Assembly: GCA_000004985.1 (NCBI GenBank) | Contig: GG738876.1 | Source of the DNA: Naegleria gruberi | Taxonomy: Eukaryota | Length of the DNA stretch: 64,000 bases | Direction: 5' to 3' (one strand) | Shown: positions 6,130-36,929 of the stretch, piece by piece | How the letters are laid out: each line of letters starts with the position of its first letter | Position numbering within the stretch: the first letter of the stretch is position 1 | Notes under the pieces: model-generated | What the model was told of the DNA's origin: nothing | The model's input: the letters and a program-made list of their open reading frames with translations, nothing else | Databases searched by the model: none | Program-made: the position numbers and the translations under genes

Positions 6130-6594
6130 TCAACATCAACTGCCCCAAACTTTTGTCCCTCATCAAAATCGAATTATCAATACTCGGATGCTGTCAATTT
6201 GATTAATGTGTTGAATTCTAATCAAATCCATTCTTTGTCAGTGGTGAAAGCTATGGTATGTTTCAACAAAATATTTGTCGATCTAAATTGACTATTTTCA
6301 GGTGGTAATTATGTTCCATTGCTCGCCAGAGAAATTTTAAAGTACAATACTAACAGTCAAAAGAAGATTTCATTCAAAGGATTGAGTGTTGGTAATCCAA
6401 CAATGGATAATGATTTGGATGCTAATGCCTATCTCCCATTCATGTTCCATCATGCTTTGGTTGGAAGTGAAGAATTTGATCTCTATCAAAAACAATGTCC
6501 AAACTTTAATACGGCTTTGATTGGTTGTACAATTCATACATGGATTTATTTTTATTGGAAAGGTTACAATTCCAATAAAAATAAATCCTTTCAA
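6130..6594 (+). pseudogene. Serine carboxypeptidase (peptidase S10) gene fragment / pseudogene, truncated and frameshifted
   Basis: Region 6290-6594 encodes ...GESYG|G NYVPLLAREILKYN...ISFKGLSVGNPTMDNDLDANAYLPFMFHHALVGSEEF.... This holds the S10 catalytic-Ser motif GESYAG-like and the INLKG/IGNG region, and a small gtatgt...ttttcag intron splits GESYG/GNYVP. Upstream (6130-6270) S10-like sequence (DAVNLINVLNSNQ ~ DVYNFLELFFDQF) lies in a different frame, with an in-frame TAA before the active-site exon. The downstream half is missing: the convergent gene ending at 6607 abuts it. Confidence 0.45.
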
Positions 6595-6606
6595 ATAATA
6601 AATATT

Positions 6607-7897
6607 TCATTGAAAAATTATAATATCCGAAAGATTGCCATCAATTACTCTATTCTTAAGATTTTCTCCTTGTTCCTTCAGATTCTTTGATTCTGAATTT
6701 GTTTCCCAATAAGCAATTAAATTGTCTCTTGCTGAAGTTATTTGAAGATGTTGATTTGGTTTTGGATTGGTAACTTTGTGAATGAGTTTGAATTTTGATT
6801 GAGAATCTAAGGAGTAAATTTGTGAATTATTGATCACTAGGAAAAAGGTTTTGTTTGAGCTACACATTCTACAGGAAATAACAGGTTCACCACATATTTT
6901 AGCAAGGTTGCTATGAAACTTATCAACCAAATATAAATTGAATTTGTCTGGAAATGTTGAATAAATTAGTAGTATCTCAAATATACTTACTTGTGAGATA
7001 AATCCAACTGTAATAGGATGCACAAATGTCTATAAAGTATTCATCTTCTCCCATTAAACTTATTGGTGCCAATTGTTTCATCATTGGCAAATTATTACCA
7101 TTATTTCCCATAGAATATCCACAATAGAAAATATTGTGATCCCTTGTTAAGGCAATAATATTGTGATCTCCATTCACTGTCTTGGTAAAGAAAGGTTCTT
7201 TGCACTCATTGGAAGGGTCAAGACAACAACATTGGATAGCTGGAATATTATTATCACTAGATGGTTGAGCTATCTCAAAAAATTGATTACTTCCACATGC
7301 CAAAAGCCTTCCATGTGATGTCAGAAAACAACAAGTAAATGCAGCACATGAAGTCTTTGTAATAAATTCCCCATCTTGTAATTGAAAATCCTCCAAGCAA
7401 GTCCATTCAATTTCTGAATTCTCAATTCCACTCTGTGAAAAAGTCTCAACTCTTTCTGTAAATTTTGTTTTCCTCACTCCAAACTCATTCCTATTCGCTG
7501 AATAACAAACAAACACTCTCGTTCTAATTAAATTCATCCCACCAGTACTTCCAGCACCACCACCACTAACAGATTGAAGCACCAAAACACAAGCATGATA
7601 ACTGACACTAATATTCACAATTCTTTCATTTGGAAATTTAAAGCTAATTTTATAATATTTCCAATTCCTGTTTTTATCAAGAGAAAATACTTCATCATCT
7701 TCCGACACTACAAAACAAGTTAATTCTCTACAGGAAATAAATTTAATTCTCCCAAATCGTTGCAAGTAATTGTTCGGAATGTTTGATGTTGGTTGATTTT
7801 TAAATCGGCTACTAGTAACGGTGTTGGTAAAAAATTCGATGGAATCTTGATAATGATTGAAGAGAGAAAATGTTTCTGCTGTTAGATTTAGAGACAT
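6607..7897 (-). CDS. RCC1-like / beta-propeller repeat protein (2 exons: 6991..7897, 6607..6947; ~416 aa)
   Basis: ATG at 7895-7897 (MSLNLTAETF...). A 43-nt intron 6948..6990 (gtaagtatatttgag...catttccag) in phase 1 joins ORFs 6977..7939 and 6607..7023. Repeated blade-like segments: CCFLTSHGRLLACGSNQFFEI, HNIIALTRDHNIFYCGYSMGNNG, ICGEPVISC, IAYWETNS. Paralogous to the gene at 19532..21040 (shared C.FLTS.GR.L..GS motif). Confidence 0.5.
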
Positions 7898-7968
7898 TTT
7901 TTTGTGAACTTTTACAATTTTTATTCCATGTGTACACAACTATATATTGTATTGCTGTTTCTGATCTA

Positions 7969-8420
7969 GTTAGAAAGAAAAGGAAAGGTAAAGAATATAG
8001 AAAGATGAAGAAAAAAAAAGAATTACAGCAGTTCATCAATTGGCACACAGATTTTGTGCCAACACATTACCTAAAGCGTAACCCTTCAATCAAAGGTACA
8101 CGAGCTACACAATGACCGTCAGATTTTGCTTTTAGTCTGAGCATCTTTTTTATTAGAAACTAATGTAATTCCCAATTGAATTGTAATTGTTTTCAAGGTA
8201 ATAATCATGAACGCAATAAGAATGAATATCAAATTGTGGTTTTATTCTTTTTAAAATGTTGCACATTTTCAATCCCCAAACTGAAACTACAAATTTTGCA
8301 ATTTATTTTTGTAAGCAATTTCAAACAATCCATATTATTTGCGAACAACCTAATATTAGAATTGTTCTCAATTATCAATAGTCAGAATTGTAATAACTGA
8401 TATTTGGATCAAGAGTCAAT
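7969..8420. repeat. Left arm of a long inverted repeat (pairs with 10130..10597)
   Basis: The reverse complement of 10130-10597 aligns with 7969-8420. Checked segments are ~95-97% identical (e.g. attggcacacagattttgtgccaacacattacctaaagcgtaacccttcaatcaaaggtacacgagctac vs the same with 2 substitutions). Identity decays toward the inner ends (~8330-8420 / 10130-10250). Confidence 0.75.
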
Positions 8421-8600
8421 GATGACATTTGTTAAATTTTTTGTAAAGTTTCATGTTCCGATTTTCAAAACCTTCCAATCAAGCAAAAACGGAAGGTTTG
8501 GAAAATCGAATAAGTTGAAACGAAACAATTTTTTGTTTTCCAACACAAAAAAAAACTAAAATCTGATCACAACATAACAACAACAAGAAGCTTCTTTAAC

Positions 8601-9266
8601 ATGATGATGGACCCGGAAACAGCCAGGTTGAAGGCCTATTTTGATGATTATTACGATCAATTCATTGATGGCCACATGGATGAGAATTTTACTAATACCA
8701 ATATTGACCATTACATTTCAACTCTTTTCAGCCGAATGGAATCAGATAAACCACCACTACCACCTGCGACTGTTGCCACTGAATGTGTTATTAGTATTGC
8801 AAATGAGAAGGATGATAGTCATAATTGTAACAATAAGATCATCATTGAATTATTAAGCTCCTTCTACTTGCAAACTCGTCGTGATCAACAAGAGGTTGAA
8901 ATTTGTGTCTACTTTGAAAAAACAAATGCAGAGCAGTGGCAACGAGTGTTTACTGCCACTGCTACCCTTGAAAAGAAGGGTCGATATAATATGAAAGCTT
9001 TTAGCAGAAAAGAACTCAAGAAGAGGCTTAAAGATCAACCTGGGTATAAGGTAAATCAAAAAGACAAATTCTATTTAGTGATTGGTCAATTCAAATTCGT
9101 ACTGGTTTCGAAACAACGTGATAAGGTACCAAAATGGCACAATCTAATTGTTGTCAGTAATAGAGAAGTCGTTTCTTCCGAATACTCTTTCACTAATTTC
9201 ACTAATAAGGCCCTTATCCCAGAATTCAACTTTGCTAAAGTTAATGATCAGCTTAGCTTTCATTGA
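8601..9266 (+). CDS. Orphan hypothetical protein (221 aa) inside the inverted-repeat cassette
   Basis: Clean ORF beginning ATGATGATGGACCCG in an A-rich context and ending in TGA. No motif I recognise (MMMDPETARLKAYFDDYYDQFIDGHMDENF...KFYLVIGQFKFVLVSKQRDKVPKWHNLIVVSNREVV...). Not transposase-like (no DDE/RNase H-like or zinc-finger signature). Confidence 0.45.
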   Translation: MMMDPETARLKAYFDDYYDQFIDGHMDENFTNTNIDHYISTLFSRMESDKPPLPPATVATECVISIANEKDDSHNCNNKIIIELLSSFYLQTRRDQQEVEICVYFEKTNAEQWQRVFTATATLEKKGRYNMKAFSRKELKKRLKDQPGYKVNQKDKFYLVIGQFKFVLVSKQRDKVPKWHNLIVVSNREVVSSEYSFTNFTNKALIPEFNFAKVNDQLSFH

Positions 9267-9407
9267 TGAGTTCGATTGCCAATACTACTTATAATTAGTT
9301 TAGTTTGGTGATCACTACATACTTTATATATTCTATATGTATCCATTCCTCTATCTATCCATACTATATATATTACTATCTATCCATCCAAGAGTATTCG
9401 AAATTTC

Positions 9408-9474
9408 AATTAATGGTAGTGGTTGGTGTTATTTAGAACCCATTTGAATAACAAGCGAACCACTACCATTAATT
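9408..9474. repeat. Perfect 17-bp stem / 33-nt loop hairpin (aattaatggtagtggtt ... aaccactaccattaatt)
   Basis: Direct inspection: 9408-9424 is the exact reverse complement of 9458-9474. It sits ~140 bp downstream of the stop of ORF 8601..9266. Confidence 0.8.
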
Positions 9475-9559
9475 GGAATTTTGATTGCTGCAGATGTTCA
9501 TGCTAGTATCTATAATCCATCCTTATTCAAATCCAGTCTTATTGATTGGTAATTTTCAA

Positions 9560-10050
9560 TTTTATGCATTAAAACCTGTAGGGACATCATCAATCAAACA
9601 CCTTACAGAGTGAAAGATAACAAGGAACTGATCTGTGATTAGTTTCTTGTTGAGTGGACCAAAGAGTGAGGTTGTCCAAACAATAACATAAGGCAACTTC
9701 TCTCATCCACTCTATTCGAATTGCTGTTATGCCATTCGAATCACAGCTGTACTCATTAGGGAGCATTAGTCTATTTTCGATTAAGTAATTGAGTATTTGC
9801 AATCTGTTGCTTGTCGCTGTTGGTAAAGTTTCAGATAATATCATACTTATTACACCTTAGTGATAGATCCATGATTAGTTTTCAGTTTACTATTTAATTT
9901 GGGCAACTTACTTTCCTTAATGTTATTGTTTGGACAACCTCACTCTTTGGTCCACTCAACAAGAAACTAATCACAGATCAGTTCCTCGTTATCTTTCACT
10001 CTGTAAGGTGTTTGATTGATGATATCCCTACAGGTTAATGCATATAAAAC
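9560..10050. mobile_element. Nested MITE-like element: ~130-bp near-perfect terminal inverted repeats (9560-9689 / 9920-10050) flanking a 230-bp non-coding core
   Basis: The reverse complement of 9920-10050 matches 9560-9689 at ~97% (ttttatgcattaaaacctgtagggacatcatcaatcaaacaccttacagagtgaaagataacaaggaactgatctgtgattagtttcttgttgagtggaccaaagagtgaggttgtccaaacaataacat). No coding capacity. Confidence 0.55.
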
Positions 10051-10129
10051 TAATAAAAATTGATTCAAATCAATTTGAATTTATTTGTTTAATTATTTTT
10101 CCTTGAAAATCTTGGAAAATCTTCAAATT

Positions 10130-10597
10130 ATTCTGCCGAGATTTGCAGCGAATATTGACTCCTTGTTTGAATATCAACCATAAAGAACAATTAGAATTGT
10201 TTCATTCAATTTTTCAATATATAGGTGAAAGAAAAAACTGTAAATTTGAAATTGATTACAAAAATAAATTTCAAAATTTGTAGTTTCAGTTTGGGGATTG
10301 AAAATGAGCAACATTTTAAAAAGAATAAAACCACAATTTGATGTTCATTCTTATTGAGTTCATGACAATTACCTTGTAAATATCACTATTCAATTGGGAA
10401 TTACATTAGTTTCTAATAAAAAAGATGCTCAGACTAAAAGCAAAATCTGACGGTCATTGTGTAGCTCGTGTACCTTTGATAGAAGGGTTACGCTTTAGGT
10501 AATGTGTTGGCACCAAATCTGTGTGCCAATTGATGAACTGCTGTAATTCTTTTTTTTCTTCATCTTTCTATTCTTTACCTTTCTTTTACATTCTAAC
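10130..10597. repeat. Right arm of the long inverted repeat (pairs with 7969..8420)
   Basis: See left arm. Confidence 0.75.
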
Positions 10598-10716
10598 ATC
10601 TCTGATATTCGAAACTTGAAAGTTTTCATTTAATTTCGAATTGATTGGAACGAAACAATCATTTTTGAATTTAATAGAACTTTCTCAAAATCAATCAATT
10701 TCAATTGACCAAAAAA

Positions 10717-11631
10717 ATGTCTCAAGACAATCTCACAGATGAAGAATCGACATATTTCATTAGAAATTATCCATTAACTCATCCTTTCATCATGGCACAC
10801 TATAAGAAACAACGAACCATTCCTGTATTGGCTGCTCCTCTTTCTAGTTTTGCAGTTAGTTGTGCTACCATCTCGTACTTTGCCTTTAGTTTAACCTTTC
10901 CCGAGAAGAGATTAGTAATGGATTATGTACATGATGAATATTCGAATAATGGAAGTGGAAAGCCCAGATATAGTGGTGGAATTGTGGATGTGGTGAGGAA
11001 GATTTATGCTGAAGAAGGAATTGCTGGAGTTTTGGGGAAGAAAGAGGCTGTAGCAGCATTGATTGAAATGGGAGCTACCATTGGATATTTTGCAACTATT
11101 GGAAATGTTGTGAAATCTTTTACTGTACCGAATAGTTGGTTAGAATTTGCTATTGACACTTTCTTAATGAATACTGTGATTCATCCAATTTTAGTCGTTT
11201 CGTTTGCCCTTCATAAGAGATTTGACGACAAAACGAAAGATAATAGGGGATTTATTGAGACTGCAAAGAAGATTTATTCAGAAAGTGGTGTGAAAGGATT
11301 TTATCGTGGTTTTGGTTGGTCTTTTTTATTCCACCTTGAAAAGGTTTACAAAAAAGGTTTAGCTTGGGTAATTCGTTCAGGAGTGGAATTTTTTCTTGAC
11401 ATTGAACATGAAAACTTGGATGCTGAAACACACTTTACATTGAAACATATTGAAATTAATTTAGTTAAAATCCTTTACGATGTGATAATGCCATTCTCAT
11501 CATCCTTGGGTAGATATGTTGGAGATCAGGGAGCTACCTATTCCAATTACTTTGATTGTGTGAAAAAGACTTACCAACAAGAAGGATTGAAAGGATTGTA
11601 TAAGGGTTCATGGGTGGCAATCTTTTTGTAG
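10717..11631 (+). CDS. Mitochondrial carrier (SLC25)-like protein, divergent (304 aa)
   Basis: First ATG is at 10717 (aaaaaaATGTCTCAAGAC); the track's 'MTKK' start is a TTG. There are three carrier-like repeats ending in G(I/V)xGxxxG-type motifs (GIAGVLGK, GVKGFYRGFGWSF, GLKGLYKGSWVAI). The canonical Px(D/E)xx(K/R) motifs are degenerate, so the call is tentative. Confidence 0.5.
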   Translation: MSQDNLTDEESTYFIRNYPLTHPFIMAHYKKQRTIPVLAAPLSSFAVSCATISYFAFSLTFPEKRLVMDYVHDEYSNNGSGKPRYSGGIVDVVRKIYAEEGIAGVLGKKEAVAALIEMGATIGYFATIGNVVKSFTVPNSWLEFAIDTFLMNTVIHPILVVSFALHKRFDDKTKDNRGFIETAKKIYSESGVKGFYRGFGWSFLFHLEKVYKKGLAWVIRSGVEFFLDIEHENLDAETHFTLKHIEINLVKILYDVIMPFSSSLGRYVGDQGATYSNYFDCVKKTYQQEGLKGLYKGSWVAIFL

Positions 11632-31796: not shown

Positions 31797-33416
31797 ATGT
31801 CCTCATCAATTGCCCTGAATAATTCTAATACCTCTACCACTACTACTACCAATCCTCCTTTTGATATTTCCAAGCTTGTTACTCAAGCAGTTTTGTTACC
31901 TTCCTCCTCATCGTCATCCTTCCATAACAACCTCCCTAAATCATCATCATCATCCCCCTGTGCATTGGATAATAATACCAATGAACAACAACAACAACAA
32001 CCATTGAGTGATGATTCGATCATTCTCGAAGAAACAACCACCACCGACGTTGATAATACAGTAATTGCCACCATAACGACAAAAGCTGCTCTAGGCAGTG
32101 GTGCTTTGATGGTTGAAGGAGTTGCCCTTGTCGACGATGAAGATGACGAAGAATCAACACCTGCCACACCAGAAGCTAATGGAGAATCCCAGCAAGAATC
32201 TTCTCAACAAGAACACCAAGAATCTGGCCTTTTAAAAGCCAAGAAGAAGAAGAATTCATTGACTAATAGTGCAGCAGCTCTTGAAGATTTGGAAACTATT
32301 TCAACCATGACAACTGTCAAGACTACAAGTACAACAAAGAAGGTTGTCAAGAGACATTCATCGCTCTCTGCTCAAACTATGAACCAAGCAATGGATCAAT
32401 CAATGAATCAATCAGCTCAACAAGAAGAACAATACACCACTCTTAAATCATCCACTCCAACAAAGAAGCAGAACAAGGAAAAGAAAGCAAGTCCTATCAA
32501 TAATCTCTTCAAATCCATCAAGGGTGTCATTAAATCTTTAAAGAAGAATAAGAATAACAAGAGCACTTCTAGCTCAACGACTTCACATAATAATAGCAAG
32601 CAAGATGGTGATTTAATCCATCAATTCTGTANNNNNNNNNNNNNNNNNNNNNNNNNNNNNNNNNNNNNNNNNNNNNNNNNNAACAAGGTGAAGCACTCAC
32701 TGGTTTCTCAACAAGACGAAGAAGTCAAGACAAATAAGAAGAGAGCTCACAAGCAAGCTCCACAAACTGCTCTTCTCCCACCTCAACGACCACACGTTCA
32801 AGGCAAGAAGACTCTTGTACTTGACCTTGATGAAACATTGGTTCACTCTGTCTTTGTACATACTGACCAAGCTGACTTTGTGATTCCAATTGAAATGGAT
32901 GGTAGAACATACTCTTGTTATGTTCTCAAGAGACCTGGAGTTGACGAATACTTGAGAGAACTCGGTCAATACTATGAAATTATCATCTTTACTGCTTCTC
33001 TCTCCCTGTATGCCAACCCACTTCTTGACATTCTTGATAAGCATGGTGTCATTGAAGGTAGATTATTCCGTGAACATTGTACAAAGGTTGGTGATACTTA
33101 CATTAAGGATCTCTCAAGATTGGGTCGTGATTTAGATCAAACCATTATTGTAGATAATTCTCCAAGTTGCTATGCAATGCAACCACAAAATGCTTTGGCT
33201 TGTACCACATGGTACGATGATCCAAACGATAGAGAGCTGGGTCTTCTTGCTGATTGTCTCAAACGACTTGAAAGAGAAAAGGCTGTCTATGATGGTCTCA
33301 AGTCATGGAAGGAATTAATTTCATCAGGTGTTAATGTTACCTCATGGAATGGCGGATCAGCAATGACAGTATCCTCGACGTCTCACCATCATCAAGTAAT
33401 AAAGAAAAGAATGTAA
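31797..33416 (+). CDS. SCP/FCP-type (NIF domain, DxDxT) protein phosphatase with long low-complexity N-terminus; CDS interrupted by a 50-N assembly gap
   Basis: C-terminal domain KKTLVLDLDETLVHS (DxDxT catalytic motif), ...IIFTASLSLYANPLLDILD..., ...IIVDNSP... is typical of CTDSP/Dullard-like phosphatases. The N-terminal half is S/T/Q/N-rich. Ns at 32632-32681 fall inside the reading frame, so the protein is incomplete in the middle. Confidence 0.75.
   Translation: MSSSIALNNSNTSTTTTTNPPFDISKLVTQAVLLPSSSSSSFHNNLPKSSSSSPCALDNNTNEQQQQQPLSDDSIILEETTTTDVDNTVIATITTKAALGSGALMVEGVALVDDEDDEESTPATPEANGESQQESSQQEHQESGLLKAKKKKNSLTNSAAALEDLETISTMTTVKTTSTTKKVVKRHSSLSAQTMNQAMDQSMNQSAQQEEQYTTLKSSTPTKKQNKEKKASPINNLFKSIKGVIKSLKKNKNNKSTSSSTTSHNNSKQDGDLIHQFCXXXXXXXXXXXXXXXXXNKVKHSLVSQQDEEVKTNKKRAHKQAPQTALLPPQRPHVQGKKTLVLDLDETLVHSVFVHTDQADFVIPIEMDGRTYSCYVLKRPGVDEYLRELGQYYEIIIFTASLSLYANPLLDILDKHGVIEGRLFREHCTKVGDTYIKDLSRLGRDLDQTIIVDNSPSCYAMQPQNALACTTWYDDPNDRELGLLADCLKRLEREKAVYDGLKSWKELISSGVNVTSWNGGSAMTVSSTSHHHQVIKKRM
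32632..32681. other. Assembly gap (50 N)
   Basis: Run of n characters inside a low-complexity coding region. Confidence 1.
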
Positions 33417-35721: not shown

Positions 35722-36879
35722 ATATATAATATCACACCACATAAAATTAACAGTACGTGACGGTCATATATAAACTACTATTCATGAATTGTAATGGTTT
35801 CAATCGTTGTATTACACGAGTAAATAATCAATTTGTCATTTTGAAAAATTACAATTTTAATTACAACAACTTAAAAACCACATTTTCTAAATTTCATATG
35901 GTAATCTCTCTGAATTATATTGTATACATACCAAAAAGTAATGTATCAATTATTTGCTATTTAAAACCTTGTATTTTTAAATATTTATCTATTAAACTTT
36001 AACTACTATATTTGGAATAAAATTTTCAATATTCTCAAGAAATAATTAACCAATGTTTTCATGGTTAATGTTAAATTATATAAAGATGATAATCAAGCAA
36101 AATAATATAAATTGTTAATGATTTAGTGTTTCAGGATTCAAATCTTATGTTTTTGTCAATTTATCTTCCTTATTTTTCAGTATTTTAAAAAAAGCCGAAT
36201 CAGAAAGATTGTAATTGTAATTTAATTTAGTTTCGTATATTGTTGGAGATGTAAATCATTAAGAATAAAAACTAGATACGAAAAAACATTGAAATTCTTG
36301 CTGGGCTAGTGGTAAATTTTTAACTTGGTCAAAATTCAAAAAATGCCACCAAAGCCAAGCAAGTTCATGCTTCGATCAAAAATTATGAAATCAACAAGAT
36401 CCAAGAACAAGAATGATGATGATGATCTCTCTAATATTTGTCCTGGTATTGATTTAAAAAGAATTGGTGATGTAAAATTGATTAATTTAATTGGAAAGAA
36501 AGTTTTTATTCGTGATGGTCGTTTATTCACCCATTCCGAACCTATTACAATATCATCTAGACAATGTACATGTTCTTCTTGTGGAAAATTGTATAGAAAT
36601 TCATTACGAAAGTACCATGACAGAACATTAGCAAAGAAAAATCAACAGTTCCGTAAAACAATCAAATCACTCAAAAGGAAAGTCAAAATATTGTCACATA
36701 ATGATGATGTTATTGTAGAAAAATTGAGATCACTGTTGGAACGTAATATTATCACACCAAATCATTTCTTTTATAGATTTATATCTAACACGATCCTCAA
36801 TGCCGACAAATCTTCACATTACTTCATGAATAGTAGTTTATATATGACCGTCACGTACTGTTAATTTTATGTGGTGTGA
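35722..36879. mobile_element. Candidate DNA transposon remnant: perfect 57-bp terminal inverted repeats (35722-35778 and 36823-36879) flanking ~1 kb with one ORF; right TIR abuts an assembly gap
   Basis: tcacaccacataaaattaacagtacgtgacggtcatatataaactactattcatgaa at 35722-35778 is the exact reverse complement of 36823-36879. Ns begin at 36880, so the true right boundary and any TSD are unknown. Confidence 0.4.
36343..36864 (+). CDS. Hypothetical basic protein (173 aa from first ATG) encoded inside the TIR-bounded element; its last ~14 codons run into the right TIR
   Basis: First ATG at 36343 (aaaaATGCCACCAAAG). Basic N-terminus, Cys cluster (CTCSSCGKLYRNSLRKYHDR) and a K/R-rich helical segment (KTIKSLKRKVKILSHNDDVIVEKLRSLLERNII). 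It is vaguely like the post-THAP region of P-element-type transposases, but without an intact zinc finger I can verify. Confidence 0.3.
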   Translation: MPPKPSKFMLRSKIMKSTRSKNKNDDDDLSNICPGIDLKRIGDVKLINLIGKKVFIRDGRLFTHSEPITISSRQCTCSSCGKLYRNSLRKYHDRTLAKKNQQFRKTIKSLKRKVKILSHNDDVIVEKLRSLLERNIITPNHFFYRFISNTILNADKSSHYFMNSSLYMTVTYC

Positions 36880-36929
36880 NNNNNNNNNNNNNNNNNNNNN
36901 NNNNNNNNNNNNNNNNNNNNNNNNNNNNN
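36880..36929. other. Assembly gap (50 N)
   Basis: Run of n characters immediately after a perfect inverted repeat. Confidence 1.

Follow-up and report, generated by a model that had tools for sequence, protein, structure and literature searches.

A long spaced inverted repeat in a cluster of unrelated palindromes of Naegleria gruberi, tentatively read as a local inverted duplication

Introduction

Spontaneous palindromes arise from template switching during replication or from fold-back repair, accompanied by modification of the centre. The hpRNA/endo-siRNA genes of Drosophila and the plant proto-miRNA genes of the inverted-duplication type originate from the inverted duplication of a target gene and keep complementarity to this target. 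MITEs usually carry terminal repeats of 10-40 bp. The Thug elements belong to Dictyostelium discoideum (PMC5633606). In Trypanosoma brucei, small RNAs arise from each of the seven long unique inverted repeats (PMC3447711). The genus Naegleria is described as transposon-poor, with transposable elements making up 0.28% of the N. gruberi genome (bioRxiv 10.64898/2026.06.24.734286), all repeats taken together accounting for 5.1% of it and a few dozen PiggyBac and EnSpm fragments being found in N. lovaniensis (PMC6125883). Dicer-like genes are reported in N. gruberi (PMC4791657) and homologues of both Dicer and Argonaute in N. fowleri (PMC13315211).

Here, we analysed an inverted repeat, termed the foldback in the following, which is located at positions 9560-10050 of a 64-kb stretch of N. 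gruberi DNA; the whole of this stretch is referred to as the window. With spontaneous palindromes the foldback shares the single locus (within the window), the lack of a clear transposition signature, a spacer that appears to break a former palindrome and the clustering with other palindromes. It differs from them in its junctions, since template switching does not classically leave a direct repeat such as GGCAACTT, the mechanism not being demonstrable from one sequence. Like MITEs, Drosophila FB elements and Thug elements, the foldback is small and non-coding, has long terminal inverted repeats, is predicted to fold into a hairpin over the whole unit and resides at an AT-rich intergenic site, its arms of 137 and 139 nt being far longer than the terminal repeats usual for MITEs. 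With hpRNA and proto-miRNA genes it has in common a double-stranded stem of at least about 100 bp, a sizeable loop and a position outside of protein-coding sequence. The inverted repeats of T. brucei are, as the foldback would be on the reading favoured here, unique non-transposon inverted repeats with a spacer, present in a discoban protist possessing Dicer and Argonaute, whereas their arms span 422 bp to 10 kb at 99-100% identity (PMC3447711) compared to 137 bp and approximately 95% in the foldback. By analogy, we regard these siRNA-producing repeats as the best model for how the foldback would behave if it were transcribed.

Results

Geometry of the foldback

A repeat search of the window identified an ungapped core of two arms (9573-9696 and 9913-10036) of 124 nt each, being 96% complementary and 216 nt apart. 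Gapped blastn against the 64-kb window gave arms of 9560-9696 and 9912-10047 with 94.9% identity over 138 columns (E = 4e-57), and when 9560-9696 was aligned globally to the reverse complement of 9912-10050, the arms differed by three substitutions and three small internal indels. The foldback is a genuine and highly significant spaced inverted repeat, composed of the following parts:

9560-9696, no strand: left arm, 137 nt, GC 39% (repeat search, blastn, global alignment)
9697-9911, no strand: spacer, 215 nt, GC 34%, non-coding and unique in the window
9912-10050, no strand: right arm, 139 nt (repeat search, blastn, global alignment)

The first-pass annotation had described arms being reverse-complementary at about 97% around a non-coding core of 230 bp. 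The coordinates of these arms are essentially correct, while the identity was set slightly too high (approximately 95%) and the inner ends of the arms lie a few bases closer to the centre; the core is indeed non-coding, as judged by homology and codon usage, and amounts to the 215 nt given above. Similarity outside of the arms (9528-9559 and 10051-10087) is not significant, as it was equalled by 20% of the shuffled sequences and of the genomic controls. As the outward similarity is no better than in these controls, the foldback ends at approximately 9560 and 10050. Tandem Repeats Finder detected no tandem array within 9560-10050, i.e. no sub-repeats of the FB type.

Predicted folding

Secondary-structure prediction of the unit of about 490 bp, suggested as a check in the first-pass annotation, yielded one stem of approximately 135 bp with a z-score of about -26. 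The plus-strand RNA is predicted to fold into a single long stem at -261.2 kcal/mol (z = -26.8), with 0 of 100 shuffled sequences being as stable, and the minus-strand RNA at -266 kcal/mol. Using DNA parameters, the unit folds at -155.4 kcal/mol (z = -26). The stem of about 135 bp is predicted on both strands and thereby is longer than the 100 bp above which the long dsRNA stems of siRNA-type inverted repeats lie.

Coding capacity and copy number

The foldback is non-coding, as shown by the absence of protein homologues and by a codon usage resembling that of non-coding DNA. The log-ratio of codon usage is 0.00 bits/codon for an 84-aa ORF at 9590-9844 (minus strand) and at most 0.08 for the frames of the arms, compared to 0.15-0.33 for real genes in the window. 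This 84-aa ORF is absent from the protein collection searched, an open 46-aa frame in the arm returned zero candidate homologues in a protein search, and a chimeric query assembled from all other stop-free segments of at least 27 aa gave no protein match at E <= 10. Six-frame translations of the foldback compared with the window resulted in no match, and no family at or near threshold was obtained in Rfam, using both gathering and permissive thresholds.

Neither the arms nor the spacer have a second copy in the 64-kb window, as analysed by blastn with 7-nt words and at the protein level. The window represents approximately 0.16% of the 41-Mb genome, so a single copy therein excludes only families of roughly at least 2,000 copies. 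Exact 20- and 21-mers from the arm had 0 matches in viral contigs and 0 in prokaryotic genomes. Three metagenome matches to a 20-mer of the arm were attributed to chance, the contigs having a GC content of 54-55% and the matches not extending past the 20-mer.

Ends of the foldback

The ends of the foldback read ...TTTTATGCATTAAAACCTGTAGGG ... CCCTACAGGTTAATGCATATAAAAC... and contain several candidates for a target-site duplication, namely TA, TTAA (9569-9572 and 10036-10039) and an imperfect pair:

9561-9569, plus strand: TTTATGCAT, matching TTAATGCAT at 10035-10043 in 8 of 9 positions

The pair TTTATGCAT/TTAATGCAT could be a target-site duplication of 8-9 bp if the element comprised 9570-10034. 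ATGCAT and TTAA are self-complementary, and therefore these bases may equally well belong to the inverted repeat as its outermost portion. Directly at the ends of the repeat proper (9560 and 10050), the flanking direct matches are of 2 bp only. When placements were chosen at random and examined with the search grid used for the candidates, 94% of them had a flanking direct repeat of 4 bp or longer. TTAA adjoins (AA)CCTGTAGGG...CCCTACAGG on both sides, but the inverted repeat runs 9-11 nt beyond both TTAA, so that a piggyBac-type reading would require a palindrome to have existed beforehand and to have been hit precisely at its centre. On direct reading, the termini of the foldback start with CCTG...CAGG and thus fit neither hAT-type termini, which are CAG...CTG, nor canonical piggyBac termini, which are CCC...GGG.

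Junctions between arms and spacer

At the junctions, we observed an exact direct repeat:

9692-9699, plus strand: GGCAACTT, 8 nt, repeated at 9902-9909 and bracketing 202 bp of the spacer

The chance for such a repeat is about 2% for junction windows of 30 x 30 nt, the repeat having been found post hoc. Once the 202 bp and one copy of GGCAACTT are deleted, the arms form a near-perfect palindrome whose loop measures about 5 nt, resembling the 97-nt hairpin located next to the foldback. The presence of GGCAACTT at the junctions is in keeping with a formerly perfect palindrome having received an insertion at its centre, hinting that the 202 bp are an insertion or filler acquired later. On direct reading, this insert shows no terminal repeats and no poly(A) tail.

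Palindrome cluster and outer inverted repeat

The foldback is accompanied by three further palindromes, the outermost of which encloses it:

9393-9489, no strand: near-perfect hairpin unrelated to the foldback, 97 nt, 5-nt loop on a stem of about 45 bp, ending 70 nt before the foldback
8441-8528, no strand: third small palindrome with an 18-bp stem (8459-8476 / 8491-8508), about 90 nt upstream of the start codon of the gene NAEGRDRAFT_50113
7969-8325, no strand: left arm of the outer inverted repeat, ending 71 nt upstream of the first ATG of an RCC1-like ORF (minus strand)
10245-10597, no strand: right arm of the outer inverted repeat, ending 119 nt upstream of the first ATG of a mitochondrial-carrier ORF (plus strand)

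A self-search of the window at E < 1e-7 gave about seven strong independent inverted repeats, and the 2.6 kb of 7969-10597 harbour four of these. These four have no sequence in common and do not recur elsewhere in the window. Strong local hairpins in the 64 kb are limited to the foldback and the 97-nt hairpin; the latter folds at -55.7 kcal/mol (z = -11.2) and occurs once in the window. In Rfam, the 97-nt hairpin gave sub-threshold miRNA-shaped matches only, which we attribute to its hairpin shape.

The outer inverted repeat aligns over 357 columns at 94.4%, including a stretch of 176 nt at 98% (blastn, repeat search). Its centre is located at approximately 9283 and that of the foldback at approximately 9805, i.e. 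about 520 nt apart. Since the centres differ, the foldback is nested in the outer repeat and yet is a separate palindrome. The nested insertion proposed in the first-pass annotation accordingly holds for the nesting, as topology, the insertion being a hypothesis. Its further interpretation of the region as a graveyard of mobile DNA is unsupported; what is found is a local cluster of mutually unrelated palindromes. The outer arms have the same orientation relative to each of the two divergently oriented flanking genes and could represent a duplicated upstream region, either promoter or 5' leader, which fits as well as terminal repeats do. Each outer arm finishes in a pyrimidine-rich tract followed by TTCTAAC. 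The sequence TCTGAT was considered as a target-site duplication of the outer repeat and rejected, as it lies 3 nt off each end and does not abut the repeat.

Genes and genomic setting

The cluster is flanked by two ORFs with Pfam assignments and contains one orphan gene:

6977-7939, minus strand: RCC1-like ORF (Pfam)
8601-9266, plus strand: NAEGRDRAFT_50113 (XP_002675739.1), 100% identity, orphan gene between the outer arms
10705-11631, plus strand: mitochondrial-carrier ORF (Pfam)

The window is gene-dense, with many gaps between long ORFs being merely 40-80 bp. The foldback is located in a gap of 1.44 kb before the mitochondrial-carrier ORF, which is among the longest in the window, and the stop codon of NAEGRDRAFT_50113 precedes its start by 293 nt. 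NAEGRDRAFT_50113 has a host-like codon usage (0.29 bits/codon), belongs to no Pfam family and retrieved only itself among 5.8 billion clusters and 1.84 billion representative proteins. We rejected this gene as a candidate transposase, as it has neither a Pfam family nor a relative among the 1.84 billion representatives. A single-sequence AlphaFold model reached a mean pLDDT of 36 and is unusable. The six neighbouring ORFs scanned with Pfam (F-box, RCC1-like, the orphan, the 84-aa ORF, mitochondrial carrier and ankyrin-repeat kinase) contain no transposon-type domain, and a Pfam scan further out (ABC transporter, P450, RCC1-like, MAPEG and a weak MRG match) showed no transposase, integrase or reverse-transcriptase domain.

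Directly 3' of the foldback we observed the hexamer AATAAA (10052-10057), such hexamers being frequent by chance in AT-rich sequence. Polyadenylation directed by this hexamer would place both hairpins within the 3' UTR of NAEGRDRAFT_50113. A direct repeat of 29 nt with 79% identity (TCGAAT..GAAACGAAACAAT...) is found at 8506-8534 and 10636-10664, i.e. about 55-95 nt upstream of the start codons of NAEGRDRAFT_50113 and of the mitochondrial-carrier ORF, and may be a shared upstream motif.

At a distance from the cluster, a perfect inverted repeat of 57 nt (35732-35788 and 36823-36879; 1034 nt apart) encloses AT-rich DNA with a GC content of about 26%. An ORF of 173 aa (36343-36864) inside it resembles host genes in codon usage and belongs to no Pfam family, and the right arm of the repeat adjoins a run of N starting at 36880. 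Two readings of this element are conceivable, a DNA transposon bounded by terminal repeats and an artefact of the gap edge.

Discussion

We tentatively favour, at a probability slightly short of even, the view that the foldback is a locally generated inverted duplication, which would form dsRNA if transcribed; we infer its origin as well as any transcription and dicing. The inverted duplication would have arisen by template switching at stalled replication forks or by fold-back repair of a break, within an unconstrained stretch of DNA that gathers several unrelated palindromes, as existing palindromes would promote the formation of new ones. The first state was probably a near-perfect palindrome like the 97-nt neighbour, which would then have been stabilised by a central filler of about 200 bp bracketed by GGCAACTT. 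An arrival by transposition is not part of this local-origin model. The model is supported by the finding that four unrelated palindromes, each single-copy in the window, occur together in a transposon-poor genome, making one regional process more economical than several foldback families. The foldback carries no diagnostic signature of a template-switch origin, and several properties count against a local origin: its GC content of 34-39% compared to 24-30% in the flanks, as foreign DNA might look like this, its ends, as they can be read as carrying TA, TTAA or the imperfect duplication of 8-9 bp, and its location in a long intergenic gap, as transposons accumulate in such gaps of compact genomes. 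As for the consequences of a local inverted duplication, single-stranded DNA could extrude a hairpin of 135 bp, and a transcript across the foldback, e.g. a plus-strand read-through from NAEGRDRAFT_50113, would form nearly perfect dsRNA of approximately 135 bp. Such dsRNA would be a substrate for Dicer-like enzymes, and the locus may therefore yield endogenous siRNAs as a by-product. If the foldback is only a local palindrome, its importance is little, i.e. it adds one more long inverted repeat persisting in a compact protist genome. If it is transcribed and diced, it would be a natural source of dsRNA and thereby a concrete handle for testing RNAi in Naegleria, a question that matters in practice for developing genetic tools for N. 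fowleri, a pathogen (PMC13315211).

The first alternative, which we judge to be rather unlikely, is that the foldback is a copy of a non-autonomous DNA transposon of the foldback/MITE type, which would depend for its mobility on a trans-acting transposase that recognises its ends and would have inserted into intergenic DNA inside an older inverted-repeat structure. A length of 465-491 bp, long terminal inverted repeats and the lack of coding sequence agree with this, the size being within the range of MITEs (<800 bp), as do the elevated GC content relative to the flanks, the repeats of PiggyBac class reported in the sister species N. lovaniensis and the element at 35732-36879, which is compatible with DNA transposons being present in the genome and is itself only a candidate. 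The possible end duplications (TTAA, TA or TTTATGCAT/TTAATGCAT) point in the same direction, but every one of them falls in a stretch (TTTTATGCATTAA.../...TTAATGCATATAAAA) which is complementary to itself and may just as well form the end of the repeat, leaving the target-site duplication ambiguous. The foldback further differs from MITE and FB families by occurring as one copy in 64 kb, by arms devoid of the tandem sub-repeats seen in Drosophila FB elements and by termini of neither hAT nor canonical piggyBac type. The neighbouring palindromes show no sequence relationship and occur once each in the window, the scanned neighbouring ORFs lack transposon-type domains, and the genus is poor in transposons. 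Membership in the Thug family, which the first-pass annotation had named as the obvious comparison, is excluded on host taxonomy, N. gruberi belonging to the Heterolobosea (Discoba). Our literature search on Naegleria MITEs and on the identifier NAEGRDRAFT_50113 retrieved nothing specific. Taken together, the partial evidence leans against the MITE/foldback reading, and a single copy is insufficient for calling a MITE. Should many copies exist, the foldback would define a family of foldbacks with long arms, in a genome in which transposons are reported to be nearly absent.

A second alternative, a dedicated hairpin-RNA locus, is improbable. It states that the 97-nt hairpin and the 491-nt foldback are co-transcribed, either by themselves or forming the 3' portion of the NAEGRDRAFT_50113 transcript, and processed by Dicer-like enzymes to miRNA-like RNAs or siRNAs which regulate targets in trans, with selection acting on the stem so that the arms are still complementary at about 95%. 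Two strong hairpins in tandem on one strand, 70 nt apart and the only such in 64 kb, are in agreement with this, as are the Dicer-like genes of N. gruberi and the precedent of the inverted repeats in T. brucei. Both transitions between the arms result in G-U wobbles in a minus-strand transcript, but two wobble-compatible changes amount to a coin toss. No target was identified: nothing complementary beyond chance is present in the window and the arms have no protein-coding relative in any frame, and Rfam offers no family at or near threshold. This sets the foldback apart from hpRNA and proto-miRNA genes, as it has no related gene, neither at the DNA level in the window nor at the protein level in the databases. 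An extended version, according to which the 2.6-kb cassette as a whole is a Naegleria small-RNA locus, its pre-miRNA-like 97-nt hairpin and its 491-nt hairpin being transcribed in tandem downstream of the orphan gene with their complementarity selected, appears decidedly improbable; in such a locus the enclosing outer inverted repeat of 357 bp could itself form dsRNA. If true, and judging from the literature searched, no endogenous locus giving rise to hairpin-derived siRNAs or miRNA-like RNAs would have been described in Heterolobosea before it; for Naegleria, this literature contained no account of small RNAs originating from endogenous hairpins.

An assembly or cloning artefact, i.e. a chimeric inverted join in the draft assembly, has a negligible probability even considering that the scaffold is a draft with gaps and that the other perfect inverted repeat in the window adjoins one of them, since the arms of the foldback differ by substitutions and indels whereas artefactual fold-backs are identical, and since the foldback is set in continuous unique sequence without a nearby gap, runs of N being present in the window only at 32632-32681 and 36880-36929 and none within 20 kb of it.

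Upstream of the cluster, an ORF at 6319-6690 (plus strand, 123 aa) has a gene-like codon usage of 0.28 bits/codon and probably is an exon of an intron-containing gene. A palindrome of 47 nt with 89% identity (6542-6588) is located inside this ORF.
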